The notes beneath the pieces were generated by a model. That model made no database searches. It was given only the letters and a program-made list of their open reading frames with translations, and was not told the DNA's origin. Below, one piece after another: positions 9,074-55,998 of a stretch of 64,000 nt of DNA. Both the position numbers and the translations under genes were made by a program. The stretch covers positions 4,960,001-5,024,000 of the forward strand of contig OZ253462.1 in assembly GCA_965261395.1 (NCBI GenBank), read 5' to 3'. This stretch comes from Candidatus Latescibacterota bacterium (lineage in GTDB: Bacteria > Latescibacterota > UBA2968 > UBA8231). Positions within the stretch are counted from its first letter, which is position 1, and each line of letters starts with the position of its first letter.

Positions 9074-11344
9074 ATGGCCCCGAGCTTGCAGATCGGTCGC
9101 CGCGAACTTTGGACCTGTGCCCTCATTGTCCTGTTGTCCTTGGGCCTGCGTCTCTGCTATCTAAACGAACTCTCCCCCAGCCTGCTTTTCGCCGTTCCGG
9201 TCGTCGATGCCCGGACCTATGTCGATGACGCCCGCTACCTCAGCGAGGTCTCTTGGGCTGGGCGACCGACGCCCTTTTGGCAACCGCCGCTCTATCCCTA
9301 TCTGCTCGGCCTCCTCTTCTCTATAAGCGGCGAAGACTACTACCTGCCCCGCCTACTCCAAGCCCTATTCGGTGCGCTCGTCTGTGGATGTACCTATCTG
9401 CTCGGTCTCCGTCTCTTTCCCCCAGCCGTGGCGCTCGGCGCGGGTTTGGCCGCCGCTTTCTATGGCCCGCTGATTTATTTTGGCGGCGAATTACTGCCCA
9501 CCATCCCGGCCATCCTCCTCGACTTGGCTCTGCTGCTCTTGCTGCTCACCGCTCCCCTAAAGCAGCGCTGGCCGTGGCTGATCGCCGGTCTGGCACTGGG
9601 TCTGGCCGCCTTAGCGGTGTCCAATATTCTCCTTTTCGCGCCGGTATTGCTTGCTTGGCTCTGGTTTTCTCAGGGGAACTTTGTCCAGCGAGGCGCCTTG
9701 TTGCTCCTCGGCATCGCGCTGGTCATTGCCCCGGTCGCGTTGCGCAATCACCTAATCGGCGACGACTGGGTACTCATCTCGCACAACGCCGGGATCAATT
9801 TCTATATTGGCAACAACCCCGACTACCAGCGCACAGTCGATACCCGTCCTGGCAGGGCTTGGCTCCAGCTAACGGAAATGCCCGAACGCGAAGCCGGCAT
9901 TGAACGCCCATCGGCTAAATCCCGTTTCTTCTCCGCCCGTTCTTGGGATTTCGCCGCAGCGAATCCGCTCGACTATGCGTGGCTACAGCTTTACAAGCTC
10001 TATCTGTTTTGGCACGGCGATGAAATAAAGCGCAACATAGATCCATATTTCGCCCGCCGCGACTCAGTGCTTTTAGCCGCCCTGTTGTGGAAAAAGGGCG
10101 TCGCCTTCCCCTTCGGATTAGTAGCCCCGTTCGCCCTCTTAGGTCTAGTGCTTTTTACGCGCACCTCGGCGGGCAAGACTGAGCAGGGGCATCTCTTCTT
10201 GCTATTCACTCTGACGTACATGGTCTCGGTGGTGCTCTTCTTCGTTACCGCGCGCTATCGGCTGCCCGTCGTGCCCTTGCTTTTACTCTACGCCGGTTTC
10301 GGGATGTATTCACTATGGAAAGAAACACAGTACCGCAGGAAGGCCTTGGTGGCTTTGCCCCTTCTGTTGCTGGTAGCCAATATCGGCGCCGGGGCTATGG
10401 ACGAGGAGGGCGAACCTCAGCAGCACTTCTGGCTGGGCTATGCCTACGAGCGCAAAGGTATGCCGGCCAATGCCATGCGCGAATACAGGTGGGTCCTCAA
10501 CCAGCTCCCCGACCACGACGACGCGCTCTTGCGCCTAGCGGCCCTCTACATTGACGAAAAGGAATACCACAAGGCCGTCGATCTCTACCGAAAATATCTG
10601 GAGTTCTACCCCGAGGCGGACCGAGTCCGCTACTTTCTCGGCAATGCCCTGTTGCACATGCGCTACTACGAGGACGCCATCGCCACCTACGAGCAGGTCG
10701 CCGAAAAGCGCCCCAACTGGGCGGCCATCTACGGCCGAATCGGCTATGCCCACGCCATGGCGGGCCAACTCGGCCAAGCAGCCGATGCCTATCGCCGCAC
10801 CCTGGCGCTGCACCCCGACTCTACCTTAGTGCGTTACCAGTTAGCCCGGCTCCATGAGACAGAAGGCCAATTGCAGGCCGCTGCCGCTGAGTACCGCACT
10901 CTGCTGGAGCAAGCCCCTACCGAACCCGAGTACCGCATCCGCCTAGCTGATCTGCTCGTCGAGGAGGCAACCACAGGACAAACGACCGCGCTTCTAGAGC
11001 AGACGCTCCAAGCCCAGAGGGCCGAGGCCCTTTTGCGCCAAGCTATCGACCTAGATCCAAACCGCGTCGAGGGCTACTGGAGCATGGGCCTACTCTTGGC
11101 TCGACAGAACCGCTATCCCGAGGCCCTAGTATTCTTTGAGAAAATTGCCGCACTCGCACCGCAGGATCCCCAAGTACACGCCTGTCTGGGCAATCTTTAC
11201 GAGCGCCTCGGCAGAGAGGCAAAAGCGCAGGAGCGCTTCGATAAATACGACCAGCTCAAGCGGAAACGGCGTCTGCAGGACAAGGCGAGGGCAGAAGTAG
11301 AAAAGAATTTAGAACTGGTGCAGAAGATACTCGGACAGCGATAG
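9074..11344 (+). CDS. GT-C fold (ArnT/PMT, GT39/GT83-like) membrane glycosyltransferase fused to TPR repeats
   Basis: Roughly 11-12 hydrophobic segments; first-loop DARTY and PPLYPY motifs; RYRLP; C-terminal ~300 aa of TPRs. Confidence 0.75.
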   Translation: MAPSLQIGRRELWTCALIVLLSLGLRLCYLNELSPSLLFAVPVVDARTYVDDARYLSEVSWAGRPTPFWQPPLYPYLLGLLFSISGEDYYLPRLLQALFGALVCGCTYLLGLRLFPPAVALGAGLAAAFYGPLIYFGGELLPTIPAILLDLALLLLLLTAPLKQRWPWLIAGLALGLAALAVSNILLFAPVLLAWLWFSQGNFVQRGALLLLGIALVIAPVALRNHLIGDDWVLISHNAGINFYIGNNPDYQRTVDTRPGRAWLQLTEMPEREAGIERPSAKSRFFSARSWDFAAANPLDYAWLQLYKLYLFWHGDEIKRNIDPYFARRDSVLLAALLWKKGVAFPFGLVAPFALLGLVLFTRTSAGKTEQGHLFLLFTLTYMVSVVLFFVTARYRLPVVPLLLLYAGFGMYSLWKETQYRRKALVALPLLLLVANIGAGAMDEEGEPQQHFWLGYAYERKGMPANAMREYRWVLNQLPDHDDALLRLAALYIDEKEYHKAVDLYRKYLEFYPEADRVRYFLGNALLHMRYYEDAIATYEQVAEKRPNWAAIYGRIGYAHAMAGQLGQAADAYRRTLALHPDSTLVRYQLARLHETEGQLQAAAAEYRTLLEQAPTEPEYRIRLADLLVEEATTGQTTALLEQTLQAQRAEALLRQAIDLDPNRVEGYWSMGLLLARQNRYPEALVFFEKIAALAPQDPQVHACLGNLYERLGREAKAQERFDKYDQLKRKRRLQDKARAEVEKNLELVQKILGQR

Positions 11345-11353
11345 AATCCGCGT

Positions 11354-13471
11354 TCAATACGCCACGCCCACTAGCCGGGACTGCCCATCTTGTTGTGCGT
11401 CCCCTTCTATCGCCAACCGCACAATATAGAGCCCCGGCGGAACTAGCTGCCCCTGAGCATCGAGTCCGTCCCACGTCTTGTCTTCGTAGCGGCCATTGCG
11501 TTCGGGGGCGTCGTGGATGAGGCGGATTAGCCGGCCGCTCAGATCGTAAACGGCGATCTCTACTGGGCGGGCAACATCCAAAGCGAGCAAGTTATAGTAC
11601 ACTCTGGCCACATCGTTGATCTGATCCCCGTTGGGGGTGAAGACCGCGGGCGCGATCGCCATCCTGTCTAACAAACGGCCTCTGCGCAGTATCGAGGGAC
11701 TCAATACCGTGGTGCCGGATAGATCGGCATCGTCGCCTGCGGCCAGTGGTGCCGCATCGCCCGAAACGACAGCTTGGGATATACTCCTCTCTTCATCGGA
11801 AAGCCGAACCGCCGCGATAAAGTTGGTGCTATAAGTCAGCACCTCGGTCTGAAAATAGATTTTTATTAGCGCGTTGCCTTCTTGCAGGAAGGGAATCCGC
11901 ACCGAGAATCTGTCGTCGTCTACCGCGAGAATTTGGAATCCGTCAACGCGGGTCGTGTCTTCAAGCCCAGCAAAGACGCGTTCGGCGACGAGTTGTCCGG
12001 TGTCATCCACCAACTCCAGGCGGTCTATGCTCTCTACTCGGGCAGGGGTGAATATCTCTATGGTGTCAAAACCGCGCAGGCCGGCCGTCTCCAAGACCGG
12101 GCGCACGGCGTACGTGAAGGTCGTGTTTTCGGCTATCCGAACCTCGCGCGGAAAAATCTCGCCGATGATTTCGTCGGCAAAAGGAGGGGTCAGGACCTCA
12201 AAACTCAGGGATTTCAGCCCCCGGGCCGCCTCTAGGTCATCGCTCTGAAAAAGAACTTGGAACTGGAAGTACCGGTTCGGGCTAGGAGAGGCGATTGGAA
12301 TCCCAGGGCCGTTGGCCGCACTCGCGGGATAGGGTGTGCTGAACGGACTCCAGTTGATTAGATCGTCCCTGATGAGGCCGGGGTTCCACTGGCGGCCAAG
12401 GGCGTCGGCCTTGGGCAGCGTCTCGTACTCAGCTAGTTCCATCTCCCGGGTCGGGTCCTCCAAAGAGAGCGGAATCTCCTCGGCGTCGCGCTGAGCCGCT
12501 AGCAGCCGCGTGAAGACAAAGGGCGTGGCGTCGTTAGCCGTGCGGGTGCGGATCTGCAGACGGGAAAACACCTCGGGGCCGACGACTTCTTCTACCCAAC
12601 GCATATCGCCCCAGAGCGCGGGCTGGCCGGCGTCGAATATATCCGAAATGTACTGAGCTTCGGAGAGAAAGCCCGTGCCGTAAACCTCGAATTCGTCAAT
12701 CTCGAAGTTGACCGTAGAGGTGGCTCGCAGGCGTACAAACTGGACGTAACTGGGCGGGTCTATGGGCACATCGACGACGGGATTTTCGTTGTCGACGTGC
12801 AACAGCAGTGGATCCCAGATCAAACTGCCGTCGTTGGTCAGGCTGATCCCGTCGTTGGTGAAAAGCTCGAAGGCCCGCAGGAAGTCGTTGTGAAAGGGCG
12901 TGGTTGGGGATTTGTGCACGGTATTGCGCGGATAGAAGCGAATGCGATTGACGCCAAAACGCCCCCCCAAGTTGAGGATTACCAGCGCGCCCAGCGCGTT
13001 GAAATTCTTGCGCTCAAACGCCTTCTTTTCACCGCCTTCCTCGCTAGTGAGCAACTCCTCCAAGGACAGTAGGAGGTCGTTGCGATCAAAGATACCACCA
13101 CTGGCGACGCCTGCCTCGCGCCCAAAGTCGAAGACGTTAGGCGCGTCTATGTCACCGCCCCGCGTCACCGTGTTGTTGGCGATGTTTTCGCCTTCTTCTA
13201 TGCGCAGGGGAAAGATACCACGAGGAAAATCGGGATGCGCGAATTCGACTAGATTCCCAGGCGCGTTGCCCACTAGCAGGCGGTTGGGGTTGAGGGGCGA
13301 GCGATGCTCTGCGTCGATGACCGCCACGGCGGAGCTTCCTTCGCCCCGCCAATCCAACTCGCCGCCCTCCCCCAAGGTAACGGTGTCGAGGGCGAAAACG
13401 GGGGCACAAACGATCGCTAATAACCCTGATGCTAGGGCGAAAATACGCGAAAAATAGCCCGATACACGCAT
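11354..13471 (-). CDS. Secreted protein with C-terminal CHU_C/FlgD Ig-like domain (paralog family)
   Basis: Signal peptide; NRIRFYPR, IRTRT and WSPFS motifs; C-terminus PAVFTPNGDQIND...WDG...VPPGLY...GVAY. Confidence 0.75.
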   Translation of the reverse strand: MRVSGYFSRIFALASGLLAIVCAPVFALDTVTLGEGGELDWRGEGSSAVAVIDAEHRSPLNPNRLLVGNAPGNLVEFAHPDFPRGIFPLRIEEGENIANNTVTRGGDIDAPNVFDFGREAGVASGGIFDRNDLLLSLEELLTSEEGGEKKAFERKNFNALGALVILNLGGRFGVNRIRFYPRNTVHKSPTTPFHNDFLRAFELFTNDGISLTNDGSLIWDPLLLHVDNENPVVDVPIDPPSYVQFVRLRATSTVNFEIDEFEVYGTGFLSEAQYISDIFDAGQPALWGDMRWVEEVVGPEVFSRLQIRTRTANDATPFVFTRLLAAQRDAEEIPLSLEDPTREMELAEYETLPKADALGRQWNPGLIRDDLINWSPFSTPYPASAANGPGIPIASPSPNRYFQFQVLFQSDDLEAARGLKSLSFEVLTPPFADEIIGEIFPREVRIAENTTFTYAVRPVLETAGLRGFDTIEIFTPARVESIDRLELVDDTGQLVAERVFAGLEDTTRVDGFQILAVDDDRFSVRIPFLQEGNALIKIYFQTEVLTYSTNFIAAVRLSDEERSISQAVVSGDAAPLAAGDDADLSGTTVLSPSILRRGRLLDRMAIAPAVFTPNGDQINDVARVYYNLLALDVARPVEIAVYDLSGRLIRLIHDAPERNGRYEDKTWDGLDAQGQLVPPGLYIVRLAIEGDAQQDGQSRLVGVAY

Positions 13472-13603
13472 GGCAGCACTCCAATGTAACCGAGACGGCG
13501 GCGGCTGTTGGCAGCCAGCGCTTGTAAAATGACTTTTGGAACCGAGTTGATATCGCTTTATTATATATAAAATCTCGTCCCCCAGTTCAAGGAAGGATGA
13601 GCC

Positions 13604-15727
13604 ATGCCTAGATTTTTGTCTTTCTGTGTCTGCACGGTCCTATTCGCCGCTGCTCAGGTAAACGCCCGCACCGAATACCATCTGGGCGGTGCGGACGGCC
13701 CGTCCTGGCAGGACGTTCGCAGCCAAGCCGAAGTGGGGGCGTATCTGGTCTATGACGCCAACGGCGAGTTGCTCAAGAGCATCGCTGTGGGCACGGCCCC
13801 GCAAGAGACGGGTGGGGATACCCTCGTCGATTTTTCCGACAGCTCCATCCGCCCCCGCTTCATCGATCCGCTCGAAAATTTGGCCCTGACCGATCTAAGC
13901 GCCGCGTCGAACGAAGTCCCCCTGAATTTCACTGGGGGGGAGGTCAGCGTATCCTACGGCAATGGGACTTCGGCTTACAATTGCCTCTTCGCCGGCAACA
14001 ACGCCCCCCTCAACAAGCTCATGCTCGACGCCAATCCCGTATCCGCCCAGTTCCGTCCCTTCTCGCAGGACCCTAACAAAGCACCGGGCATCGGCTTAGG
14101 GCGCCCTTTCTACGATGTCATCATATTCGATTTCGGTGCCAATGTGCCGATTAACCGCATTCGCTTCTATCCGCGCCTCAGCCAAGAGGAAGACCGCCTA
14201 CTGATCGAAAATTTTGCCGAGCCCAAACCTCCCCTTGAGTCTTTTGGCGAAGACAGCTTCGCTGATAATTTCGTGGGCTGGTTTGATATCCGCATGGGCG
14301 ACGCTTCGCTGCCCTTCCAAGACGGTGCGTGCGGGCGCACGCCCGGCAGGCGCTGGATTAAAAGGAACGACCCCTTGCTGACCGTGCTGCACTCCACCCG
14401 CGAAAACCTCGACGTGGTGACCGATCTGCGCTTCAAGAGGCAGTCCATCCGCTTTCTCACCTTCCAAGCCTTTCCCTTGGGCAACTGGGAACTCGCCGAG
14501 TTTGAAATCTACGGCGAGGGCTTTGTCGAAGAGATGACTTACATCACCCAGATCTTGGACTTCGGCCGCCCGATTAGCTGGGGCCAGATCCGCTGGAACG
14601 GCGAGTTGCCCGAGGGCGTACGGGCGGAGATCCGCACCCGCACTGGGCATACCCCCGACCCCAAACTCTACTTCGCCCCCAACAACAACGGCGATCTAGA
14701 CCAAATCACCCTGAAGGAGTACTTAAAGATCGACGCGCTGTCCCGCCTGCCCACCGAGTATGATACCGAAAATTGGAGTTTCTGGTCGCCGCCCTACGAT
14801 TTCGCGGCCGGCTTGCGCGACGAGACTTTGCCCGCCGAAGCCTGGCAAGACGGCACTCCCCTGCTCTCGCCAGGGCCTAGCCGCTATATTCAGATCGCCG
14901 TTAAATTTCTTTCTGCCCCCTTTGCCGCCCCCCGGCTGGATCAGCTCTCACTACAGTTGAGTGAGGCACCTTCGGCCCAAGAAGTCGTCGGCGAGATTTG
15001 GCCCATCGAAGTGGACTCCTTCGAACCTACCACCTTCACCTATGTGGTGCTGCCCTCCTTCGAGACGGACAATATCGGCTTCAACCACCTAGAAATTCTC
15101 ACTCACGCCCGGGTCGATACTATCGAAGCGGTCGTACTCGACGGGACCAGAGTGGATCCTAGCCTCTTCCCCTATGAGATCCTCGATGACCGGATCGTGA
15201 TCGAATTTCCAGAGATAAAGGGCGAAGAGGATAGCTTCAAGCAGTTGGAGGTGATCTTCAACGCGCCCGTGCTGAGCTTCGGCACCGAATTCAGTAGCTG
15301 GGTTTTCAACAGCGAGGACCCCGATCAGATCCGCCAGCAGGTCCGGCCTGGCAACGCCACCTTTCGTTTTTCCGGCGATGTTCTCGCCGTTAAAACTCCG
15401 GTGGGCGGCAATTTGCTGGTCAATGTGGAAGTCGGCCCCAACCCCTTTACGCCCAATGGCGACGGCCTCAACGAGACGCTAACTATCTCCTACAGTTTGC
15501 GCGAGGTGGCAACGGATCGCACGGTCTCTGTGCATATCTACAATCTAGCCGGGCAAGAGGTGGCCACATTGCCCCCAACGCGGTCTCGCAGCGGGCAGTT
15601 CCGCCAAGAGTGGGACGGCACCGACGCCAACGGCCAGCGCGTCCCTCCGGGGCTCTACCTATACGAACTATCTCTCGATGTCGAGCAAGGAGACAGAAAA
15701 ATGGGGTTCCTCGCGGTGGCGTATTAA
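13604..15727 (+). CDS. Secreted protein with C-terminal CHU_C/FlgD Ig-like domain (paralog family)
   Basis: Signal peptide ending VNA; NRIRFYPR, EIRTRTG and WSFWS motifs; C-terminus PNPFTPNGDGLNE...WDG...VPPGLY...AVAY. Confidence 0.75.
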   Translation: MPRFLSFCVCTVLFAAAQVNARTEYHLGGADGPSWQDVRSQAEVGAYLVYDANGELLKSIAVGTAPQETGGDTLVDFSDSSIRPRFIDPLENLALTDLSAASNEVPLNFTGGEVSVSYGNGTSAYNCLFAGNNAPLNKLMLDANPVSAQFRPFSQDPNKAPGIGLGRPFYDVIIFDFGANVPINRIRFYPRLSQEEDRLLIENFAEPKPPLESFGEDSFADNFVGWFDIRMGDASLPFQDGACGRTPGRRWIKRNDPLLTVLHSTRENLDVVTDLRFKRQSIRFLTFQAFPLGNWELAEFEIYGEGFVEEMTYITQILDFGRPISWGQIRWNGELPEGVRAEIRTRTGHTPDPKLYFAPNNNGDLDQITLKEYLKIDALSRLPTEYDTENWSFWSPPYDFAAGLRDETLPAEAWQDGTPLLSPGPSRYIQIAVKFLSAPFAAPRLDQLSLQLSEAPSAQEVVGEIWPIEVDSFEPTTFTYVVLPSFETDNIGFNHLEILTHARVDTIEAVVLDGTRVDPSLFPYEILDDRIVIEFPEIKGEEDSFKQLEVIFNAPVLSFGTEFSSWVFNSEDPDQIRQQVRPGNATFRFSGDVLAVKTPVGGNLLVNVEVGPNPFTPNGDGLNETLTISYSLREVATDRTVSVHIYNLAGQEVATLPPTRSRSGQFRQEWDGTDANGQRVPPGLYLYELSLDVEQGDRKMGFLAVAY

Positions 15728-27673: not shown

Positions 27674-28375
27674 TTATCCTTCGGACTCTAGCTCGCTGAT
27701 GCGGTCGCGGACCTTGGCCGCCTGCTCGTAGGCCTCTTGGGCGATGAGGTAGTCCAAGTGCGCCTTGAGCTGCTCCAACTGGCTTATCGGCTCGCCCGTC
27801 TGCGGATCCACAAACGCCTCCGACTGCTTCGCGGCACTTTCGTGCTCAGTTGCTTCATCCTCTGCGGGCGCATCTGGATCCTCCTCGGGTACAGCCGCTT
27901 GTTCGCCCTCGGCCCCTTCGCGCTGGTCGGAGTGCTCCAGCGGCTGGCCAGCCGCCTCCATTACCTCTGGGGTCATGAAGAGCGGCACGCCCAAGAGCGT
28001 GGCCAAGATCATGCCGTCGCTGGGGCGGCAGTCGAGGTAGAAGGACTGGCCCTGGGCCTGGACCAGCAGGTAGGCGTGGAAAACGTCTTCTTTGAGTGTG
28101 TGGACCACCAGCTTGTGGACCACAGCGTTGATTCGCTTGAGCAGGTTGCACAACAGATCGTGCGGCAACGGCCGCGGCAAGGCAATTTTGCGGATGGCCA
28201 TGGCGAGGGCTTGACCCTCAAAATGGCCGATCGTGATGGGCACCACAGTGTTTTCCGTGCCCTTGATCAAGACCAAAAACTTCTGCGGGATGCCCAAGCC
28301 CTGCTCCGCGTCTGGATAGGGGTACATGTCGAAAATGTACACCGGAATTAGATGGCTTTCTTCGTCTTTCATCAC
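27674..28375 (-). CDS. Bifunctional nuclease (DUF151) family protein with C-terminal UVR domain
   Basis: PITIGHFEG, RPLPHDL and LDCRPSD motifs; EAYEQAAKVRDRI UVR motif. Confidence 0.85.
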   Translation of the reverse strand: MMKDEESHLIPVYIFDMYPYPDAEQGLGIPQKFLVLIKGTENTVVPITIGHFEGQALAMAIRKIALPRPLPHDLLCNLLKRINAVVHKLVVHTLKEDVFHAYLLVQAQGQSFYLDCRPSDGMILATLLGVPLFMTPEVMEAAGQPLEHSDQREGAEGEQAAVPEEDPDAPAEDEATEHESAAKQSEAFVDPQTGEPISQLEQLKAHLDYLIAQEAYEQAAKVRDRISELESEG

Positions 28376-28445
28376 TCCCGTACCCTCGTATAGATTGCTG
28401 TATTCGTCAGTAATATAGGCTTTTGCCGGGCAAATACAATTTTCT

Positions 28446-29165
28446 TTAGATCAAGCCGCGCTCCTTCAAGCTAAGGAAATCGTCGCTGCCGATGATGAGG
28501 TGGTCGAGCACGTCAATGCCCATGATTTCGCCGGCCTGCACCAAGCGCCGCGTCAGGTTGATGTCGTCCTGGCTGGGCGACACGTCGCCGGAGGGATGGT
28601 TGTGCGCCAAGATCAAGCTGGCCGCAGCCTGCGATACGGCCGTGCGAAAGACCTCGCGCGGATGCACGATAGCCGAAGATAGACTGCCGATGGACACGAC
28701 CTCCTTGTGGATCACCTGATTGCGGGCGTTGAGATACAGGCAGAGGAAGTGCTCGCGCTGCTGATCCTTGATATCGGACAGCATCGACAGTGCGTCGCCG
28801 GGCGCACTAATCACCGGCCGCACCCCTAAGCCCTTGTGCAACCCGCGACGTGCCAGTTCAAACGCCGCGACTAAGACCCCGGACTTGGCCTTGCCCAGCC
28901 CCTTAATCCGGCTCAATTCCCCTATATCCATATCCACCAGCGATTCCTTGGGGTAATCGGCGAGGATGCCCTCGGCTAAGTCCATCACGTGCCGACCGCG
29001 ATACCCCGTCCCCAAGGCCACGGCCAACAGCTCTTGATCCTTGAGCGCCTGCGGACCCAAGCGCGCGAGCCGCTCCCTTGGCAGTTCGTCGGGGCGGAAG
29101 AGTGGCCCCTCGCCCACGGTGCGGGCGGCAAAGTCGTAGTCAATGGGCTGAGTTTGCGTTGGCAC
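28446..29165 (-). CDS. radC: RadC/UPF0758 JAB-domain protein
   Basis: PRERL..LG...L.D.EL, VHPREVF, HNHPSG..PS..D and LDHLII motifs; GTG start after AAGGAGG. Confidence 0.93.
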   Translation of the reverse strand: MPTQTQPIDYDFAARTVGEGPLFRPDELPRERLARLGPQALKDQELLAVALGTGYRGRHVMDLAEGILADYPKESLVDMDIGELSRIKGLGKAKSGVLVAAFELARRGLHKGLGVRPVISAPGDALSMLSDIKDQQREHFLCLYLNARNQVIHKEVVSIGSLSSAIVHPREVFRTAVSQAAASLILAHNHPSGDVSPSQDDINLTRRLVQAGEIMGIDVLDHLIIGSDDFLSLKERGLI

Positions 29166-29338
29166 GGTGCGTTCCTCCTTGGGCAAAGCTGTAGCAAAAA
29201 AACCACGCGACTGTAGCGTCCAGCTCCCACGAGCCACCGGGCACTAGACGCAACCGACGTAATAAGCAGAATCTGTGCCAGCACCTTGCTTTGCCCCGAC
29301 CCCCCTCCTATATTTTTTCGCATTACCCCCCATTGCCG

Positions 29339-31777
29339 ATGTCTAACCCACGCTTGGTCCTAGCCCCAACCCCGCTTTACCGCCTGCTGCTCGCCGCACT
29401 GAGCGGGGCCTTACTCTCGTTGGCCTTTCCCAGTCACCCTGACCACCCTCTCGCCTTTCTCTATCATCCGGTCTGGGCCCATTTTGCGCTGGTGCCTTTG
29501 CTGCTCGCACTGCAAGGTCGCGGCTTCAAAGCCGGCTTTGCCTCGGGTTGGATCAGCGGCTTGGTCTGGAATCTGCTGTCCCTGTACTGGGTGGCCTATA
29601 CCCAAGGCGGGGGCCTCGCCGTGGTCGGGGGCACCGGGCTGATGGCCGCTTATTTGGGCCTTTTTACTGGTCTCTGCATCGGGCTGTTCAACGTGCTCGC
29701 CGCGCGGTGGGGCGCAAAGGCACTCGTGCTGCTGCCTTTGTTGTGGACCGGGCAGGAATATCTGCTCTCCCTCGGGGAGTTGGGGTTTCCCTGGCTCTTG
29801 CTGGGGCACAGCCAAGCAGCCCTGCCCCACTTCATCCAGTACGCCACCTGGACCGGCGTCTTTGGCGTCTCCTGTTGGGTCGTCGGCCTCAACGCGCTGT
29901 TTTACTTGGCGCTCGTCGAGCGGCGCGTCTTCCTCGGGGGCGTTGCCTTGGGCTATCTCTTGCCTTGGCTCCACGCTCAGAGCGCGCTGGCTGCGCCCGT
30001 TCCGGCCGAGGGCCTGCGCATCGGCCTGATCCAACCGAACACCACGTACGCCGACAAGTGGGGGCCCAACGGGCTGGAGCGCACTTTTTCAACCCTCGCC
30101 GCGCTCTCGCGCCAAGCGGCCAAGCGCGATCCCGAACTGCTGGTCTGGCCCGAAACCGCCTTGCCGTGCGATCCCGTGCGCCGGGCTGGTTGCCGAGGCC
30201 GCGTCCAAGCGCTCGTCGAGGAGCTGGACATTTCCCTGCTGACCGGCGCGCCGCACGCGAACTACAACGCGGCCTTCTTCGTACAACCTGGGGCCACAGC
30301 CCTGCCTTCGTACGCCAAGATGCACTTAGTGCCCTTTGGCGAGCGAACGCCCTACCGAGACGCCATCCCCTTGCTGCGCGACATCGACTGGTCCCGCCTG
30401 ACCGGCGACCTCGGCCCGGCGGAATTTTCGCGCGGCACGGAGCACGCGGTTTTTGCCCATCCCCGACACCCCTTTGCCGTACTCATCTGCTTTGAGTCTA
30501 TCTTTCCCGATCTGGTGCGCCAGCACGTAGCGGCTGGGGCTCGCGTGCTGGTCAACATTACCAATGACTCGTGGTTTGGCCGCAGCGCGGGACCCTACCA
30601 ACACGCCCTCATCAACGCCATGCGCGCCGTTGAAAACCGCACGGCCATCGCCCGCGCCGCCACCTCCGGCATCTCCCTGTTCATCGACCCGTTTGGCCGC
30701 ACCTACGAGGCGACCGACCTCTTCACACCCGCGATCGCGGTCGCCACCGTGCCGGTCGGCCAGCCTACGACTTTCTACACCCGGCACGGCGACTTCTTCG
30801 CCTGGGGCTGCCTACTGATCTCCCTAGGTGCCTTCGCCGCCCTTTTCCGCAAGCCGCGACCCACCCGCGAGGCAGCAGAAGCTGACCTCGACTCAGAAGT
30901 TCAACACGAACCAGAAGCTGACCTCGATCCAGAAGCTAACCATGACCCAGACCCGCCCCGGGAAAACAACATGCCCTTTCTCGACCACCTCGAAGAACTT
31001 CGCTGGCGCATTCTCAAGGCTCTAGGTGCGCTCGTCGTAGGCGCGGCGATTTGCTTCGCCCTCTCCGACTCAATCGTGCAGATCTTGACCCGGCCGTACG
31101 AAGAAGCCGTCTTCAGCTTGGAGAACCAGCAATCCTCGGGCGCGGTGCAGTTGGTGCGCCAGTGGTTGGGCCTGTCCGATGCTGCGCCGGAGCCGGACGC
31201 GCCAATCGCCGACCTGCCTCCGGCGCGTCGTCTGCAATCCCTCCGACCCATGACCTACTTCTTCATCAGTCTGCAAATCGCCTTTGTTGGCGGGCTGCTA
31301 TTGGCGCTGCCCGCCCTCTTCTACCAAGCCTGGCGCTTTGTCGCCCCAGGGCTTTTGCAGCGCGAGAAACGGCTCATGGTGCCCATTATCTCGCTGAGCG
31401 TCTTCTGCTTTTCGGTCGGCGCGATGATCGCCTATTACATCGTCCTCCCGCTCGGGCTGCGCTTTTTTCTCTCGCTAGAGCCGCCCGACATGACCTCGCA
31501 ATGGGCGGCCGACGAGTACATCGGCTTTGTGCTGCGGCTGATCGCCGGCTTTGGCATTGTCTTTGAGATGCCGGTGCTGTCGCTCTTTTTGGCCAAGGTC
31601 GGCGTGCTGACCGCCGCGCGGATGCGCCACATTCGCCGCTATGCCATCATCGGCATCTTCGTCCTCGGCGCGATCTTCACACCGCCCGACCCAGTCTCCC
31701 AGATCCTGATGGCCCTGCCCCTGCTCCTGCTCTACGAAATCAGCATCTGGGTCTGCAAAATCTCCGAGCGCAAATAA
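29339..31777 (+). CDS. lnt-tatC: Fusion protein: apolipoprotein N-acyltransferase (Lnt) + twin-arginine translocase subunit TatC
   Basis: Single uninterrupted ORF. Lnt triad WPE / YAKMHLVPFGE / ICFES plus TNDSWF and MRAVEN; then TatC motifs MPFLDHLEELR, WRFVAPGL...EK, FEMP, TPPD and LLYE. Confidence 0.9.
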   Translation: MSNPRLVLAPTPLYRLLLAALSGALLSLAFPSHPDHPLAFLYHPVWAHFALVPLLLALQGRGFKAGFASGWISGLVWNLLSLYWVAYTQGGGLAVVGGTGLMAAYLGLFTGLCIGLFNVLAARWGAKALVLLPLLWTGQEYLLSLGELGFPWLLLGHSQAALPHFIQYATWTGVFGVSCWVVGLNALFYLALVERRVFLGGVALGYLLPWLHAQSALAAPVPAEGLRIGLIQPNTTYADKWGPNGLERTFSTLAALSRQAAKRDPELLVWPETALPCDPVRRAGCRGRVQALVEELDISLLTGAPHANYNAAFFVQPGATALPSYAKMHLVPFGERTPYRDAIPLLRDIDWSRLTGDLGPAEFSRGTEHAVFAHPRHPFAVLICFESIFPDLVRQHVAAGARVLVNITNDSWFGRSAGPYQHALINAMRAVENRTAIARAATSGISLFIDPFGRTYEATDLFTPAIAVATVPVGQPTTFYTRHGDFFAWGCLLISLGAFAALFRKPRPTREAAEADLDSEVQHEPEADLDPEANHDPDPPRENNMPFLDHLEELRWRILKALGALVVGAAICFALSDSIVQILTRPYEEAVFSLENQQSSGAVQLVRQWLGLSDAAPEPDAPIADLPPARRLQSLRPMTYFFISLQIAFVGGLLLALPALFYQAWRFVAPGLLQREKRLMVPIISLSVFCFSVGAMIAYYIVLPLGLRFFLSLEPPDMTSQWAADEYIGFVLRLIAGFGIVFEMPVLSLFLAKVGVLTAARMRHIRRYAIIGIFVLGAIFTPPDPVSQILMALPLLLLYEISIWVCKISERK
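30876..30947 (+). repeat. Tandem repeat (2x36 bp, built from 18-bp subunits) encoding the acidic Lnt-TatC linker
   Basis: cagaagctgacctcgact-cagaagttcaacacgaac-cagaagctgacctcgatc-cagaagctaaccatgacc. Confidence 0.85.
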
Positions 31778-31916
31778 ATTCTCTTCATCCGCCTCGGCGG
31801 GCGGCTACAACCCCAAAACGCTATCCGCATTTGCAGAAGACCTGACCTATGGACGGGATTTCCAAGGTTGCCAGGTGGCAGCAGAGGTGCGTTGAGGGGT
31901 TAAAAGAAGACGAGAG

Positions 31917-32793
31917 ATGGGAGATGGAGATATGGACACAGCCGTTCGATTCATGCTCGCGTCGATTGCGCTCCTCGCAATAGTCAACCACGCGCACGCA
32001 AATACGGGCCGCGACGACGCCGAGGTCGTTTTGGAAGCCGGCGAGATCGACAGCAGCACGGTGGCAGTAGGTACCTTCGTCGTGGTCGTCTATGAACGGG
32101 AAGAACCACCGCAGTCGCTCTCGGGGGCTTGGGCTAAGCTGGATACGACGAGAGGCTACATTAAAGCCGTGGACCGGCAGGGATTGCTCCTGTCCCTAAA
32201 AGGCTGGCCGCAGAGGATCGCCTTGGATCGGATTCAAACGCTGACCCCAAAAATCAGCGAGTCGAGACACTACAAGGATTCAAGCGATACTGGACACCCT
32301 TTCGGCGAGAATGAGAAAAGGGAACTACACGGATACCAGTGAGCGGATTGGCCGAAAGTTGGGGTCCGGAATGCAATCGGGGCTTTTGTGTATCTTGCCA
32401 AGTGCTTTGTTGTTGGGCTCTATTCTGGCTAAAAAAGCCAACTGCCCCTTAGGGGAGATATTGTGTGGACTAGAATCTTCTATTCTCGGTGGATATATAG
32501 GCTACGTGGTTGGAGTACCCATCGGGGTAAGCGCATTGGATCGACACGATTATTTTCGATCGTTGGCCTTTTCGCTGAGTGGTAGCTTCTTAGGGGCTGG
32601 CATAGGCTTAGTGCTGATCCAAAGATATGAATTTTTGGGTCCCTTCCTTGTTATCGCCCCGCCTGCCATGGCTACGCTCGCGTCCGAATGGTTTCGCAAT
32701 CCACCGGAAGTCTCCCAAGCCCACCGATTCTCCGTCGGTCTGGTACCGAACCCCAAGGGACACCTGTCAGCCGTCGCCACGCTACGCTTCTGA
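31917..32793 (+). pseudogene. Probable frameshifted hypothetical secreted/membrane protein (ORFs 31917..32342 and 32311..32793)
   Basis: ORF1 carries the signal peptide. The ORF2 frame opens at 32245, at a CCCCAAAAA run, and ends in glycine-rich helices and a LRF tail. Confidence 0.45.
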
Positions 32794-36109: not shown

Positions 36110-36868
36110 TTGGACAGCGAATTGTTACAACGGGGATTCGTCCCCCAGCCGCTGACGCCCGCGCAATACAACGAGTTGGACGCCAACGGTTTCATCATTT
36201 TGGAAGAGGTCATCGCGCCCGACCGGCTGGCCGAATTGCGCCATGCTTTTGACGCGATCTTTGTCAGAGAGGGCGACCAAGCTGGCGCTGAGGTGTCCCA
36301 AGTAGAGGGCGTGCGCCGCCTCGCCGATTTGGTCAACAAGGGGACGGTCTTCGACGCCGTGTACCTACAGCCGACGCTGCTGACCGCGGTCTTCCACGTC
36401 TTGCAGCGGCCATTTAAGCTGCACTCGCTCAATGGGCACGATCCACTGCCCGGCAGCGGATTACAGGCCCTGCACGCGGATTGGGGGCAGCCCACCGTGC
36501 CCGGCGGACCGTATCACGTGGTCAACTCCATGTGGATGCTCGACGATTTTACCCAGGGCAACGGCGCGACCCGCTGCGTCCCCGGCAGCCACCGCAAACC
36601 CGGCAGGGTCACCGACTACATGGACGACCGCTTGGCCGATCACCCCGAGCAAGTGCAGCTGACGGGCCGCGCCGGCTCGGTCGCCGTGTTCAACGGCAGC
36701 CTCTGGCACAGTTCGTATCGCAACCACAGCAGTGATCCCCGCCGCACCCTACACTGCGCCTTTATCGCCCGCGAACACCCGCAACAGACCAATCAGCGCG
36801 AGTACTTGCAGCCCGCAACCGCCCAGCGACTCTCCCCGCTAGCGCGCTACATCCTCGACGTAGAATGA
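36110..36868 (+). CDS. Phytanoyl-CoA dioxygenase (PhyH) family Fe(II)/2OG dioxygenase
   Basis: GFIILE, HAD (HxD), NGAT..VPGSH, AGS..VF...LWH....N and R motifs. Confidence 0.9.
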   Translation: MDSELLQRGFVPQPLTPAQYNELDANGFIILEEVIAPDRLAELRHAFDAIFVREGDQAGAEVSQVEGVRRLADLVNKGTVFDAVYLQPTLLTAVFHVLQRPFKLHSLNGHDPLPGSGLQALHADWGQPTVPGGPYHVVNSMWMLDDFTQGNGATRCVPGSHRKPGRVTDYMDDRLADHPEQVQLTGRAGSVAVFNGSLWHSSYRNHSSDPRRTLHCAFIAREHPQQTNQREYLQPATAQRLSPLARYILDVE

Positions 36869-36876
36869 ACCTAGAG
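36727..36876 (+). repeat. 150-bp direct repeat, left copy (3' end of the PhyH gene)
   Basis: Matches 42340..42489 with 2 mismatches by manual alignment. Confidence 0.95.
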
Positions 36877-36884
36877 GTAGCCTC

Positions 36885-38423
36885 ATGAACAGAACAACCC
36901 GTCGCAGATTCCTGCAGACCGGCGCCGCTGGCGCCGCCGCACTCGCCTTGCCCATCCGCTTCGCCCGCGCCGCCAAGAAAGGCGGTGTCATGCGCATGGG
37001 CAAGGGGCACGGCGGGACCCACGACAGCCTCAACCCGGCGACCCACGAGAACGGCTTCACTATCGCCATGACTCATGGGTACAACAACTATCTGACCGAA
37101 GTGGCTGGAGACGGCTCGCTGGTCGGCCAGCTCGCCGAGAACTGGGAAGCATCGGCGGACGCCGCGACCTGGACCTTCCAGTTGCGCAAGGGCGTTACTT
37201 ACCACAACGGCCGGGAGGTAACGGCCGAGGACGTCGTCGCGTCCATCAACCATCACCGCGGCGAGGATTCGAAGTCCGCCGCCAAGCCGATCGTCTCGCC
37301 GGTCACCGACATCAAGGCCGACGGCAAGCACACGGCGGTCTTCACCCTCAGTGCCGGAAACGCCGACTTCCCGTTCATCGTCAGCGACTACCACCTGCCG
37401 ATCATGCCGAGCGAAGGCGGCAAGGCCGACTGGCAGTCCGGCATCGGCGCCGGGGCGTACAAGATCAAGAGCTTCGAGCCGGGCGTGCGCATCGATCTGG
37501 AGAAGTACGCGGACTACTGGGACTCGGGTCGCGGGCACTTCGACGCGATCCAGATGATCACCATCACCGATCCGGCCGCCCGTACCAACGCCATCATCAC
37601 CGGCGGGGTCGACGCCATCGACCGGGCCGATCTGAAGACCGTGCACCTGCTCAAGCGCCGCAAGGGACTCACGGTGCATTCGATTGCCGGCACCCATCAC
37701 TACACCTTCCCGATGCGCACCAACGTTGCGCCGTTCAGCGACAACAACGTGCGCATGGCGCTCAAGCACGCTATCAACCGCGAGGAAATGGTGGAGAAGA
37801 TCCTGCAGGGCTTCGGCGTCGTCGGGAACGACCACCCCATCGGCCCGGGACAGCGCTTCTTCGCCAAGGACCTGGAGCAACGCACCTACGACCCCGACAA
37901 GGCAAAGTATTACCTGAAGCAGGCCGGCATGGACTCGCTCACGGTGGACTTGAGCGTCGCGGACGCGGCCTTCGCGGGCGCCGTCGACGCAGGCGCGCTG
38001 TTCGCGGAGACCGTCAAGGAGGCGGGCATCAACCTGAACCTCGTGCGCGAGCCGAACGACGGGTACTGGTCGAACGTCTGGAACAAGAAGCCGTTCTGTG
38101 CCTGCTACTGGGGCGGTCGGCCCACCGCCGACTGGATGTTCGCGACTGCCTACGAGGCCGGGGTGCCCTGGAACGACGCCGCGTGGGAACACGAGAAGTT
38201 CAACAAGATGCTCATCGAGGCCCGTGCGGAGCTCGACGAGGCCAAGCGGCGCATGATGTATGCGGAGATGCAGCAGATCGTGCGCGACGAGGGCGGCACT
38301 ATCATCCCCATGTTCGCCTCCTACGTCTTCGCCACCTCCGACAAGCTCGCCCTGCCGGAGCAGATGGCCTCGAACTGGGATCTGGACGGCGAACACTGGA
38401 TGGAACGCTGGTCGTTCGCCTGA
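36885..38423 (+). CDS. Opp/Dpp-family (SBP family 5) ABC substrate-binding protein with Tat signal
   Basis: TRRRFL Tat motif; LAENWE...WTFQLRKGVTYHNG...TAEDV SBP_bac_5 signature. Confidence 0.92.
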   Translation: MNRTTRRRFLQTGAAGAAALALPIRFARAAKKGGVMRMGKGHGGTHDSLNPATHENGFTIAMTHGYNNYLTEVAGDGSLVGQLAENWEASADAATWTFQLRKGVTYHNGREVTAEDVVASINHHRGEDSKSAAKPIVSPVTDIKADGKHTAVFTLSAGNADFPFIVSDYHLPIMPSEGGKADWQSGIGAGAYKIKSFEPGVRIDLEKYADYWDSGRGHFDAIQMITITDPAARTNAIITGGVDAIDRADLKTVHLLKRRKGLTVHSIAGTHHYTFPMRTNVAPFSDNNVRMALKHAINREEMVEKILQGFGVVGNDHPIGPGQRFFAKDLEQRTYDPDKAKYYLKQAGMDSLTVDLSVADAAFAGAVDAGALFAETVKEAGINLNLVREPNDGYWSNVWNKKPFCACYWGGRPTADWMFATAYEAGVPWNDAAWEHEKFNKMLIEARAELDEAKRRMMYAEMQQIVRDEGGTIIPMFASYVFATSDKLALPEQMASNWDLDGEHWMERWSFA

Positions 38424-38617
38424 TCCGCATCCGGCCGAGGACGCACCATAGAGCAAGAAGAAGGGGCCACGTGGCTGGAAGGACTGCGACAATGGAGGTC
38501 GCGCGCACTGGGCGCTTGCGGAGCACCATGAAATAAGCGATCCACGCGAGCGCGATGACAGCCGGGGGGTTCGGGTTTCGGGTTTGCACGCCCGGCCGCC
38601 TCGGAGGAGAAGAGCAT

Positions 38618-39571
38618 ATGGGCGTTCTGTCACTGGTGGCCAAGCGGCTTGGACTTGGCTTCGTCACGCTGCTCGTGGTCTCGATCATCATCTTCGGGGC
38701 GGTCGAGCTGCTGCCGGGCGACCTCGCCCAGCAGATCCTCGGCCAATCCGCGACCCCGGAGACGGTCAAAGCGATGCGAGAGGAGCTCGGGCTGGACCGA
38801 TCGGCTCCGACGCGTTACGTCGAGTGGCTGGGCGGCGCACTCCAGGGCGACTTCGGGGTCTCTCTCGCCAACAAGCGCTCGGTGGCCGATCAGCTCATCC
38901 CGCGTTTCGCGAACACTCTCTTCCTCGCCGCGGTGGCGGCAGCGTTCTCCATACCAATCTCGATCGTGCTGGGGGTGCTGGCGGCGCTCTACCGCGGATC
39001 GGTCTTCGATCGGATTGCGAATGTGAGCACGCTGACCTCGATCTCGTCGCCGGAGTTCTTCCTCGGCTACATCCTCATCCTGTTCTTCTCCGTCCAGAAT
39101 TCGTGGCTTCCCTCGATATCGAGCGTCACCGGCGACATGGCGTTCACCGATCGGGTCTTCGTCACCCTGCTGCCCGCCATCACCCTGACCCTGGTGGTGA
39201 TCGCGCACATGATGCGCATGACCCGGGCCGCAATCATCGCCCTGCTGGCCTCGCCCTACATCGAGATGGCCCGGCTCAAGGGCGAGCCGCGCTGGAAGGT
39301 CATCGCGGTGCACGCGCTGCCGAACGCGCTGGCCCCCATCATCAACGTGGTCGCGCTGAACCTCGCCTATCTCATCACCGGCGTGGTGCTGGTCGAAATC
39401 GTCTTCGTGTACCCAGGGGTCGGCCAGTTGCTGGTCGACAGCGTCACCAAGCGGGACTTCCCGGTGGTGCAGGCATGCTGTCTGGTCTTTGCCGCGACCT
39501 ACATCCTGCTGAACCTGATCGCCGACGTGGGGGTGATTCTCTCCAACCCGCGGCTGCGGCATCCCAAGTGA
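38618..39571 (+). CDS. Opp/Dpp ABC permease (DppB-like)
   Basis: LLPGD...LG, GDFGVS, ARLKG...HALPNA, RDFPVVQ and NPRLR motifs. Confidence 0.92.
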   Translation: MGVLSLVAKRLGLGFVTLLVVSIIIFGAVELLPGDLAQQILGQSATPETVKAMREELGLDRSAPTRYVEWLGGALQGDFGVSLANKRSVADQLIPRFANTLFLAAVAAAFSIPISIVLGVLAALYRGSVFDRIANVSTLTSISSPEFFLGYILILFFSVQNSWLPSISSVTGDMAFTDRVFVTLLPAITLTLVVIAHMMRMTRAAIIALLASPYIEMARLKGEPRWKVIAVHALPNALAPIINVVALNLAYLITGVVLVEIVFVYPGVGQLLVDSVTKRDFPVVQACCLVFAATYILLNLIADVGVILSNPRLRHPK

Positions 39572-39581
39572 GGGCCACGTC

Positions 39582-40643
39582 ATGAGCACTTTCGCCATCG
39601 TCTTCTTCACGCTCATGATCGCGGCCTCGTGTCTGGCCGCCTACTATCATCGGCGCGACGCCTTCATGGTGTTGTTCAGCCTCACCCTCGCATCGTTCCT
39701 GATGGGCCTGCTCGGGGGGGAGCAGTGGCTACGCGCCGTCGCGATCGGCATCGGGCTGTTCTTCGCCTCCGGGGGCCTCGCCTACAGCTTCCGCGAGTTT
39801 CTGGTGCAGACTCTCCCGCGCGATGTGGCCAAGACCATGCGCAACGCCCCGCTCACCGCATCCTTCGGTCTGTTCGTGATCCTCGTCTACGTCGTGGCGG
39901 CGGTGTTCGCCCCGGTGATCGCGCCGTACGGTGAATCGGAGGTGATCGGCAGCTCCTACGCACCCGCCGACGACATGATGCTGCTCGGCGGCGATCAGCT
40001 CGGACGCGACATGTTCAGCCGCATCATCTACGGCGCGCGGAACACGGTGGGCATTGCGCTGCTCACCACCGCCATCGCGTTCCTGGTGGGGTCGCTGACG
40101 GGCCTCATGGCGGCGACGCTCGGCGGCTGGGTCGACCAGACCTGCGGGCGCATCGGCGACACGCTGATGGCGATTCCGCAGCTCGTGTTCGCGCTGCTGC
40201 TGCTGACCATCGTCGGCACCAACGTGGTCAACCTCATCCTGGTCATCGCGCTGCTCTACTCGCCACTTGTATTCCGGCTCGCCCGGGCGGTGGCCGGCAA
40301 CATCGTTGTGATGGACTACATCGAGGCTGCGCGGCTGCGCGGCGAGAAGACCTGGTACCTGATCGTCAGCGAGATCCTGCCGAACGCGACGGCACCGCTG
40401 GTGGCGGAGTTCGGGCTGCGGTTCTGCTTCGTGTTCCTGGCCATCTCGGCGCTGTCCTTCCTCGGCCTCGGCATCCAGCCGCCGACCGCGGACTGGGGCT
40501 CCATGGTGCGTGAGAACGCGACTCTCATCTCGTTCGGCGAGGTGACCCCACTGATCCCGGCGGCGGCGATCGCGCTGCTGACGGTGTCCGTCAATCTCGT
40601 GGTGGACTGGATGCTCCACCTCTCCTCCGGTCTGAAGGAGTGA
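39582..40643 (+). CDS. Opp/Dpp ABC permease (DppC-like) with N-terminal membrane extension
   Basis: LLGGDQLGRDMFSR..YGAR, YIEAARLRG and LSFLGLGIQPPTADWG motifs. Confidence 0.92.
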   Translation: MSTFAIVFFTLMIAASCLAAYYHRRDAFMVLFSLTLASFLMGLLGGEQWLRAVAIGIGLFFASGGLAYSFREFLVQTLPRDVAKTMRNAPLTASFGLFVILVYVVAAVFAPVIAPYGESEVIGSSYAPADDMMLLGGDQLGRDMFSRIIYGARNTVGIALLTTAIAFLVGSLTGLMAATLGGWVDQTCGRIGDTLMAIPQLVFALLLLTIVGTNVVNLILVIALLYSPLVFRLARAVAGNIVVMDYIEAARLRGEKTWYLIVSEILPNATAPLVAEFGLRFCFVFLAISALSFLGLGIQPPTADWGSMVRENATLISFGEVTPLIPAAAIALLTVSVNLVVDWMLHLSSGLKE

Positions 40644-53964: not shown

Positions 53965-54795
53965 ATGGCCATGAGTCGCTTTGTTCTTCTCATCGCTTTT
54001 GTTGCGTGTGCCAATCGCGCGAACACCACGCAGGGCAATGCGGCCGACTGTACCACCGAGGGAATCGCCGCCTTGGCCGCCCGTGAAGCATCAAGCGCCT
54101 ATCAAAATCTCAAGGAAGCCGGAGTCGTTGCCGATACCCTTGCTGATTCCATTGCTGTGGCCGTCGTCGACTCGGTCGCCTATGCTGCCTATGACTCGCT
54201 CTTTGCCTCTTTGCGCACCATCTTCGGCCCCAAGGCGGCGGCGGCTTTCGATCAATATATGGATGCCAAACAGGCTTTCTACGAAGTAGGCACTCCCATT
54301 GACGAAACCGCGTTGAGCGGCGCTTTTGAAGTCGGTAAATACCTTTTTAACGCGGCCGGCGTTATGCACCGTCTAACCGCATCGGAAATAGCCATCTGGG
54401 GAAACGAGTATTACCCAGCTTGGGATCGATTTAACGCGGCGGGGAAAGAAATAACCAAGCAAGCCGCCGCTGCCGCGCATAAGGCTAACTGCGCTTTCTA
54501 CAACGACGCCATTTTGTCTTTGGATGCACCAGACGCTTCCGTTGGATACCGGGCCGCTATCTTGGCCTTCTCTGGTGCGTATCTCGAAATATGTACCCCA
54601 ATGCCGTCCTCGCAATTTTTCGGCTTCGCGTACGGGCTAGCTGGCCGCTTAGATCAGGCGGCTCGCTACAATGTGTTTCGGACCGCATTGAATACAAGCT
54701 ACTACACGAGCAGTCTTTATTCGGGCTTGGAGGCAGTCTCAGAAACAGCCGAACAGGCTGCCCTGATTGCCCTGACCTTGGATTGTAGTCAATAA
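53965..54795 (+). CDS. Hypothetical Ala-rich helical lipoprotein
   Basis: MAMSRFVLLIAFVAC lipobox; true start taken inside ORF 53482..54795. Confidence 0.6.
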   Translation: MAMSRFVLLIAFVACANRANTTQGNAADCTTEGIAALAAREASSAYQNLKEAGVVADTLADSIAVAVVDSVAYAAYDSLFASLRTIFGPKAAAAFDQYMDAKQAFYEVGTPIDETALSGAFEVGKYLFNAAGVMHRLTASEIAIWGNEYYPAWDRFNAAGKEITKQAAAAAHKANCAFYNDAILSLDAPDASVGYRAAILAFSGAYLEICTPMPSSQFFGFAYGLAGRLDQAARYNVFRTALNTSYYTSSLYSGLEAVSETAEQAALIALTLDCSQ

Positions 54796-54981
54796 GACGG
54801 CAGTGGCCCTGTTCGCCTGTGGTTCCTGCCTCGCTGGCGTCTGGCTCCTCGTCGATGAGTTCGCCGGGACGGTGGGCAACTGCCTGCCGGTGTATTAATT
54901 TCTGTTCTGCTGATTCGCGAGAGGGCGACATCAGAAAAAGTCTATTTGATGGGAACGTAGAGAAGAGAGGGGAATAGACCG

Positions 54982-55709: not shown

Positions 55710-55726
55710 TGGGCTACTATGAAAAT

Positions 55727-55763: not shown

Positions 55764-55778
55764 CGGTTCTCTCAGATT

Positions 55779-55922: not shown

Positions 55923-55998
<76 letters not shown>

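Follow-up and report, generated by a model that had tools for sequence, protein, structure and literature searches.

Apolipoprotein N-acyltransferase (Lnt) and TatC, the receptor of the twin-arginine translocation (Tat) export system, are each well understood separately. In a stretch of 64,000 nucleotides from Candidatus Latescibacterota bacterium (GenBank assembly GCA_965261395.1, contig OZ253462.1, positions 4,960,001 to 5,024,000 of the forward strand), hereafter called the window, both are encoded by one complete open reading frame (ORF), at 29339..31777 (+). This is a new domain architecture made from two known families, and it is real, recurrent and selected. The reading favoured here, with a probability of about 0.6, is that of a genuine bifunctional single chain, which would have arisen through repeated loss of a gene boundary in a packed operon and would provide 1:1 co-synthesis as well as co-localisation of the two activities. 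An earlier note on this DNA had described one ORF combining an Lnt with intact catalytic triad and a complete TatC, no stop codon between them, an acidic repeat linker, a compatible membrane topology, an enlarged first periplasmic loop in TatC, and no known characterised example. These observations are borne out by the analyses reported below, and the interpretation that was built on them is, overall, partly supported.

Relatives were collected by a protein search against 5.8 billion clustered proteins, from which the best 120 matches were taken, and by a genome scan with one genome per species, which gave 592 Lnt-encoding stretches, 80 of them being kept (loci L001-L080). The combination of LNT_N, CN_hydrolase and TatC domains recurs in 61 of the 120 best clusters, at 84-96% identity for P0001-P0050 and at 50-54% for P0056-P0066, and in six species-representative genomes. 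Three further, truncated clusters among the 120 combine CN_hydrolase and TatC. The linker is read through into TatC in one frame in 49 of the 55 clusters P0001-P0055 (47 matched by script, together with P0002 and P0048). Two fused proteins, P0022 and P0121, are found among the best 150 matches in a set of 50%-identity representatives (1.84 billion proteins), P0121 being a fused protein of 785 amino acids with 45% identity. As regards genomes, a single uninterrupted ORF is present in six of the 16 closest loci (L001, L002, L003, L005, L007 and the distant L012), five of these six lying on contigs of 4.5-6.6 Mb from different species. Large fused contigs and chromosomes are the records OZ220690.1, OZ244897.1, OZ220478.1, OZ241362.1 and CBDETK010000013.1, and unfused relatives include OZ242318.1 and OZ244235.1. 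The genomes of the relatives carry the submitters' label Latescibacterota or Gemmatimonadota, except for one labelled Planctomycetota.

Two complete halves and their linker

The fusion ORF consists of 812 codons followed by a TAA stop, and its GC content at third codon positions (GC3 = 0.78) is even across the whole length. Its longest reading, 29291..31777 (+), would give 828 amino acids from an alternative upstream TTG at 29291. The ATG at 29339 corresponds to residue 17 of this longer reading and is the favoured start, because the homologues begin at the same MSNPR... sequence. The Lnt half contains the N-terminal membrane domain LNT_N of Pfam (residues 22-187, 29402..29899, +, 97 bits) and the periplasmic nitrilase-type domain CN_hydrolase (residues 228-473, 30020..30757, +, 99.9 bits). 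It scores 315.5 bits with the NCBIfam lnt equivalog (TIGR00546), well above the cut-off of 132.9, and its residues 14-510 align with residues 12-511 of the Escherichia coli Lnt chain (PDB 5n6h / 6nwr) with an E value of 4e-34.

The active-site codons on the + strand are those of E272 (30152-30154), K327 (30317-30319), E335 (30341-30343) and C384 (30488-30490). The triad E272, K327 and C384, as well as E335, sit in motifs aligned to the E. coli enzyme, whose catalytic residues are numbered Glu267/Lys335/Cys387, together with Glu343 (PMC5500888, cited here, like all articles given by PMC number, from excerpts), and all four residues are unchanged in 17 of 17 aligned fused sequences. The last transmembrane helix of Lnt (residues 486-502, 30794..30844, +) coincides with a hydropathy peak at 485-503 and with a helix at 486-502 in the AlphaFold2 model. 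Judging from hydropathy and from this model, with the orientation taken from E. coli Lnt, it comes after the periplasmic domain and returns the chain to the cytoplasm; in the E. coli enzyme helix H8 likewise follows the periplasmic domain and both termini are cytoplasmic (PMC5500888). An arrangement of eight transmembrane helices would fit the end-to-end alignment with the solved enzyme and the final helix at 486-502. As judged from its sequence, the Lnt half is a complete apolipoprotein N-acyltransferase, with a predicted eight-helix membrane domain and a nitrilase-type domain, and N-acylation is its predicted activity.

The TatC half (residues 545-812, 30971..31774, +) is also complete. It starts at the conserved Met545, where the MPFLDHLEELR motif begins at ATG 30971, and the Pfam TatC profile (PF00902) matches residues 549-794 with 233.4 bits over all of its positions (1-208 of 208). 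The score with the NCBIfam tatC equivalog (TIGR00945) is 213.5 bits for a cut-off of 132.7, and the alignment with Aquifex aeolicus TatC (PDB 4b4a / 4hts) has an E value of 9e-45. Six hydropathy peaks (558-576, 642-660, 679-697, 734-752, 769-787 and 788-806) match helices of the AlphaFold2 model, and the usual amphipathic helix precedes them at the N-terminus, with the orientation taken from the family. An ungapped stretch of the alignment (31337..31366, +) places F667 and E676 opposite Aquifex residues 87 and 96. Aquifex Phe87 and Glu96 are described as signal-binding or critical residues (PMC6525301), and F94/E103 as the key twin-arginine-binding residues of E. coli TatC (PMC13673990); the two pairs would appear to be equivalent. 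F667 and E676 are unchanged in 17 of 17 aligned fused sequences. The twin-arginine binding site is present in the TatC half, and signal binding and export are predicted from it. The first periplasmic loop is enlarged by an extra segment (residues 588-621, 31100..31201, +): TatC residues 1-43 and 78-268 align with residues 1-43 and 42-233 of Aquifex 4b4a, leaving about 35 residues more in the present protein.

The two halves are joined by a cytoplasmic linker (residues 503-544, 30845..30970, +), which starts with a basic RKPRPTR motif and continues with acidic hexapeptide repeats encoded by an 18-nt tandem repeat of 4.2 copies (30876-30951, +). Residues 501-544 include 13 D+E, 5 K+R and 7 P. 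The AlphaFold2 model of the full-length protein, obtained from a 140-row alignment, has a mean predicted local distance difference test (pLDDT) score of 88.4, and it shows no secondary structure from residue 503 to residue 545; pLDDT is below 50 for residues 521-524, 526-530, 532-536 and 538-545. The tether is thus modelled as disordered or flexible. Its length is hypervariable among the fused proteins: measured between the last Lnt motif and the Met of TatC, the span is 38-77 residues in the 47 script-matched clusters of the close group, often in steps of six residues because of the 18-nt tandem repeat, and 57-118 residues in nine script-matched clusters of the distant group. Within the close group, the linker varies least in the codons just 5' of Met545. 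Since the C-terminus of Lnt (PMC5500888) and the N-terminus of TatC (orientation from the family) are on the same cytoplasmic side, the join requires no change in topology.

The lnt-tatC gene pair and the origins of the fusion

With flanks of up to 10 kb examined on each side of lnt, tatC was found in 14 of the 16 loci L001-L016, versus one of the 64 loci L017-L080, which come from other phyla. In this sole outside case (L047), tatC lies about 5 kb upstream of lnt on the opposite strand. The pairing of lnt with tatC is lineage-specific. The 16 closest loci display the adjacency associated with Rosetta-stone type fusions: seven have separate adjacent genes (L004, L006, L009, L010, L013, L014 and L016), six are fused, and one is split by an IS110 element; in the last two, L011 carries lnt without tatC within 10 kb downstream and the sequence of L015 ends inside lnt. 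The earlier note had regarded separate genes in all close relatives, with TatC translated independently, as fatal to its reading. One close relative, L004, whose identity is 71% for Lnt and 81% for TatC, does keep separate genes, but other relatives are fused. In the split locus (L008, on a chromosome of 4.8 Mb), an IS110-family transposase gene (Transposase_20 + DEDD_Tnp_IS110; 11992-13200, -) is inserted between lnt (9644-11536) and tatC (13377-14276), which would otherwise abut.

The boundaries of the unfused pairs are very tight. In L010 and L013 the ATG of tatC and the stop codon of lnt share the sequence ATGA, the stop/start overlap is 8 nt in L009 and 20 nt in L014, and an in-frame lnt stop is followed by a start within a few codons in L004, L006 and L016. 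A small change at such an abutting or overlapping boundary would yield the fusion; the step could have been the substitution of one base in the stop codon, or an insertion or deletion of 1-2 nt at an ATGA-type overlap. The operon is probably translationally coupled. In the unfused loci the TatC core block follows an acidic stretch of 14-37 amino acids, the counterpart of the linker in the fused proteins. The core itself opens with M-P-F-L-D-H-L-E-E-L-R-W, from which L008 and L016 deviate slightly. The long first periplasmic loop is likewise found in all four unfused relatives checked (L004, L008, L009 and L016). The L008 TatC has 251 residues over the 208-position profile, with an equally long loop; those of L004 and L009 align to the TatC of the window without large gaps, and that of L016 is slightly longer. 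As the fused protein P0121 is devoid of the extra residues, the loop is not tied to the fusion.

The surroundings of the gene are conserved on one side. Upstream of the fusion, a BFN-type nuclease gene (BFN + UVR motif) and radC are divergently oriented (27674-29237, -), and of the 16 closest loci 15 keep both genes in this upstream, opposite-strand position. Directly downstream, two small ORFs of 141 and 160 amino acids (31917-32793, +) have no Pfam match. Weak homologues of both are present in L001 and of the first only in L005, with none in L002, L003 and L007, and the region 3' of tatC differs among close relatives.

Both halves are maintained by selection. Between the window and five close fused relatives, the ratio of nonsynonymous to synonymous substitution rates (dN/dS) amounts to 0.10-0.13 over 484 codons of Lnt and to 0.11-0.16 over 268 codons of TatC, as against 0.36-0.51 over the last transmembrane helix and the linker (residues 485-544). 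The two halves are under purifying selection, and neither is decaying.

The fused form has not arisen in a single event. On a FastTree phylogeny of 69 Lnt halves the fused state changes four times, at least three of these changes being forced by well-supported branches, a count to be read in the light of the long branches of P0121 and of L014. The group of the window (support 100) is nested among unfused relatives such as L004. Another fused group, P0056-P0066/L012, also contains the unfused L013, and P0121 stands beside the unfused Gemmatimonas locus L014. An IQ-TREE analysis of 33 rows, chosen by the authors from the 69 and with the group defined by the trait after the first tree had been seen, agrees with this result, and placing all 11 fused rows in one clade costs 327 log-likelihood units (approximately unbiased test, p-AU 2.9e-7). 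A single origin of the fused form is rejected. Fused forms stand at three or more places in the tree, gains and losses of the fusion not being separable at the present sampling.

One chain, two products or a coupled pathway

In the bifunctional chain that we favour, each half would keep its ordinary job. Loss of the boundary would be tolerated since the C-terminus of Lnt and the N-terminus of TatC are both cytoplasmic. The fusion would hard-wire equimolar synthesis and place Lnt beside the Tat receptor, and it would build no rigid joint active site.

Several observations weigh against this reading. The single chain of about 90 kDa is predicted from sequence, and the predicted template modelling score (pTM) of 0.71 means that the relative placement of the domains is not fixed by the model. 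No gene of the TatA/TatB family, and no lgt or lspA, was found in the 64 kb window. The close unfused relative L004 shows that the fusion is dispensable for either function. Broken forms are also observed: P0052 and P0053 stop in the linker, the repeat of P0052 reading as frameshifted, P0054 and P0055 stop in the last transmembrane helix of Lnt, and P0048 has a frameshift in its TatC part. Stand-alone TatC calls of 268-272 amino acids, with 90-97% identity, occur on contigs of 902 to 6249 nt, one of which matches the contig of P0054 in size. These broken forms and stand-alone calls look like errors or rare breaks, and real unfused variants are possible among them. Frame-keeping across the variants of linker length is weak evidence of selection, because slippage by 18 nt is always in frame. 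Lastly, all 17 aligned fused proteins retain the Met at the start of TatC, as do the 47 matched clusters of the close group, the nine of the distant group and three that the script left unmatched; in the fused locus L012, which has ATA at this codon, the deviation may be a sequencing error, since L012 is a single metagenome-assembled genome (MAG) and its near-identical relative P0062 has Met.

The breaks in the linker of P0052 and P0053, and slightly earlier in P0054 and P0055, would fit a joining of two genes in this window by a lost stop or by a frameshift introduced in sequencing or assembly; some MAG assemblies are indeed error-prone, and several GTDB representatives have separate genes. 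Such an artefact is nevertheless hardly credible given the 49 of 55 close clusters read in one frame, the 11 more distant clusters with all three domains, the single ORF on five large contigs or chromosomes of different species, the even GC3 of 0.78 and the purifying selection on both halves. It was rejected, as independent assemblies carry the same single ORF. A more serious question is whether the one ORF gives two products, TatC being made wholly or partly from an internal start at Met545, with the long chain as a minor or additional species; a separate TatC and the long chain could coexist, the two not being mutually exclusive. A retained internal start would explain the presence of Met545 in all fused proteins inspected apart from L012. 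This residue also corresponds to the first of the Aquifex TatC chain, and its equivalent in L006 is the only ATG after the lnt stop. The earlier note had seen no obvious Shine-Dalgarno sequence before TatC: no strong one is present, but a weak GGGA lies 8-11 nt before ATG 30971, and the least variable codons of the linker directly precede this ATG. The absence of such a sequence was dropped as a diagnostic, since only 17 of 38 genes in the window have a Shine-Dalgarno-like 4-mer, so that the missing strong site does not argue for an internal start being absent or present in this genome. The same Met is, however, equally conserved in unfused relatives whose likely start is 14-37 codons upstream, at the lnt stop, and its conservation therefore need not reflect initiation; fused L012 has ATA at this very codon. 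A scan of 29100-32000 gave no promoter-like site before TatC within the ORF, the sole such site (29439-29467) lying inside the 5' end of the ORF, and the terminator-like matches in the same interval are at shuffle level (three found, 2.8 expected). Production of TatC from its own start within the ORF appears possible but unlikely on balance.

Beyond co-synthesis, the bifunctional chain might serve substrate channelling: Lnt would be held at the Tat translocon, where Tat-exported lipoproteins would be N-acylated on emergence, and/or Lnt would condition the bilayer. In a bolder form, the lysophospholipid released by Lnt, or the consumption of phospholipid beside TatC, would locally weaken the bilayer and aid Tat transport. 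Conserved pairing and repeated fusion are a classic sign of functionally linked genes, and both are observed here, with tatC at 14 of 16 loci versus 1 of 64 and at least three fusions; the lineage-wide pairing hints at some functional or regulatory link. The Lnt triad and the TatC binding-site residues are both kept. Weakening of the membrane has been discussed as part of Tat transport (PMC13673990), and Tat-routed lipobox proteins have been studied in other organisms (PMC2945643). On the other hand, Lnt takes the final step, on a precursor that Lgt and LspA have by then modified and cleaved (PMC3850990). A hand-off from TatC would thus have to wait for these two enzymes, absent from both the fusion and the window, and one would not expect the translocon to have Lnt as its first partner. 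A fixed geometry is made less likely by a tether that is disordered and whose length differs by up to threefold, and sister lineages manage with separate genes. A search of all ORFs of the 64 kb window for precursors combining a twin-arginine motif with a lipobox found none, with a crude regular expression of very low power. Channelling in either form seems distinctly doubtful, and the direct hand-off to N-acylation put forward in the earlier note finds no support in these analyses.

The partners of this TatC deserve mention. TatA_B_E genes were absent from 13 of the 16 closest loci scanned, including all six fused ones. In three unfused relatives, small ORFs of this family lie 6-9.5 kb upstream of lnt (L009:~4044-4320, L010:~453-729 and L011:~3220-3496). 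A survey published in 2013 listed one TatA, no TatB and one TatC, unlinked, for the sole Gemmatimonadetes genome then available (PMC3827258). By analogy, the lnt-linked tatC may be the sole copy in a minimal TatAC system. No match assignable to the fused chromosomes as a second tatC was seen among the best 120 of 3104 TatC matches, where a divergent paralogue might not appear.

Comparable architectures, other genes and significance

No description of an Lnt-TatC fusion was found in the full-text literature search (subscription journals, ~1.7 million PMC articles and supplements outside it), which agrees with the statement of the earlier note that no characterised example is known; in the literature thus covered, the two proteins were not found to be linked in any way. 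A word search of two Tat papers (PMC3827258 and PMC13673990, supplements outside it) gave no mention of 'Lnt' or of an acyltransferase fusion. The closest comparison is with mycobacterial Ppm1 (Rv2051c / BCG_2070c), in which Lnt is fused to a polyprenol-monophosphomannose synthase; the two are fused in Mycobacterium tuberculosis and BCG, and separate but adjacent in M. smegmatis (MSMEG_3860/3859) and C. glutamicum (PMC3850990). As in the present case, Lnt is N-terminal, the product of its downstream neighbour is carried on its cytoplasmic C-terminus, and the genes are fused or separate according to the species. Both activities are retained in Ppm1 (PMC3850990). The partner differs, being in Ppm1 a synthase domain without Pfam TatC match and here a six-helix export receptor, and so does the pathway link, which is lipoprotein glycosylation in Ppm1 whereas it would be export here.

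On the TatC side, haloarchaea possess the variants TatCt, with 14 transmembrane helices, TatCx, with 10, and TatCn, with an N-terminal extension (PMC13673990, PMC6525301). They resemble the present protein in being natural TatC forms with extra transmembrane or N-terminal parts, and they indicate that TatC tolerates additions. In contrast to the fusion described here, where the partner is an unrelated enzyme and F667/E676 are invariant, TatCt is a TatC joined to another TatC, with twin-arginine sites lacking F94/E103 (PMC13673990). Stand-alone E. coli Lnt and Aquifex TatC align over their full length with the respective halves and share the same catalytic or binding motifs; the differences are the single chain and a first periplasmic loop in TatC that is longer by ~35 residues. 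The unfused sister operons (the seven loci with separate adjacent genes) have the same synteny, the same TatC core block and the acidic segment before TatC, the genes being divided there by a stop codon or a change of frame.

Among the matches in the set of 50%-identity representatives, other additions are found at the C-terminus of Lnt, namely CbiQ in P0249 and LEA_2 in P0210, as well as about 300 further residues without Pfam match in P0160 and P0179. The cytoplasmic C-terminus of Lnt seems to be a frequent fusion point.

Elsewhere in the window, two large proteins (3153-6290 and 13604-15724, +) end in CHU_C sorting domains of type IX secretion, one also having an F5/8 type C domain and the other an FlgD_ig domain; this organism probably has a type IX secretion system. 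A signalling cluster (58719-63542, -) comprises a Ser/Thr kinase fused to ankyrin repeats and a PP2C phosphatase, together with a trypsin-like protease that carries two FHA domains. At 54982-55709 (+), the genes for a nucleotidyltransferase substrate-binding protein and a Pol-beta-type nucleotidyltransferase overlap by a few codons. They lie in the part of the window with the lowest GC content (0.518 at 54001-56000) and may be a toxin-antitoxin-like pair or a mobile insert. The 334-codon ORF at 38584-39585 (+) is probably not a real gene: its GC3 is 0.42 versus ~0.75 in its neighbours, it has no Pfam match, and it overlaps with an ORF of the other strand (36762-38633) at the end of the latter.

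At the level of annotation, the fused proteins are recorded at source only as 'apolipoprotein N-acyltransferase', and automated surveys may thus miss the TatC of these genomes. The fused protein is also a natural case of a TatC presumably working with a membrane enzyme of 500 residues on its N-terminus, which constrains models of TatC-TatA/B assembly. If channelling were true, a real and undescribed coupling of protein export with lipoprotein maturation would be recorded in the operon and in its repeated fusion. If the fusion were functionally neutral, it would be a clear case of a stop/start overlap easing the fusion of membrane proteins whose termini are on the same side. The joined and split forms make it possible to test, concretely and at low cost, whether N-acylation is coordinated with Tat export.

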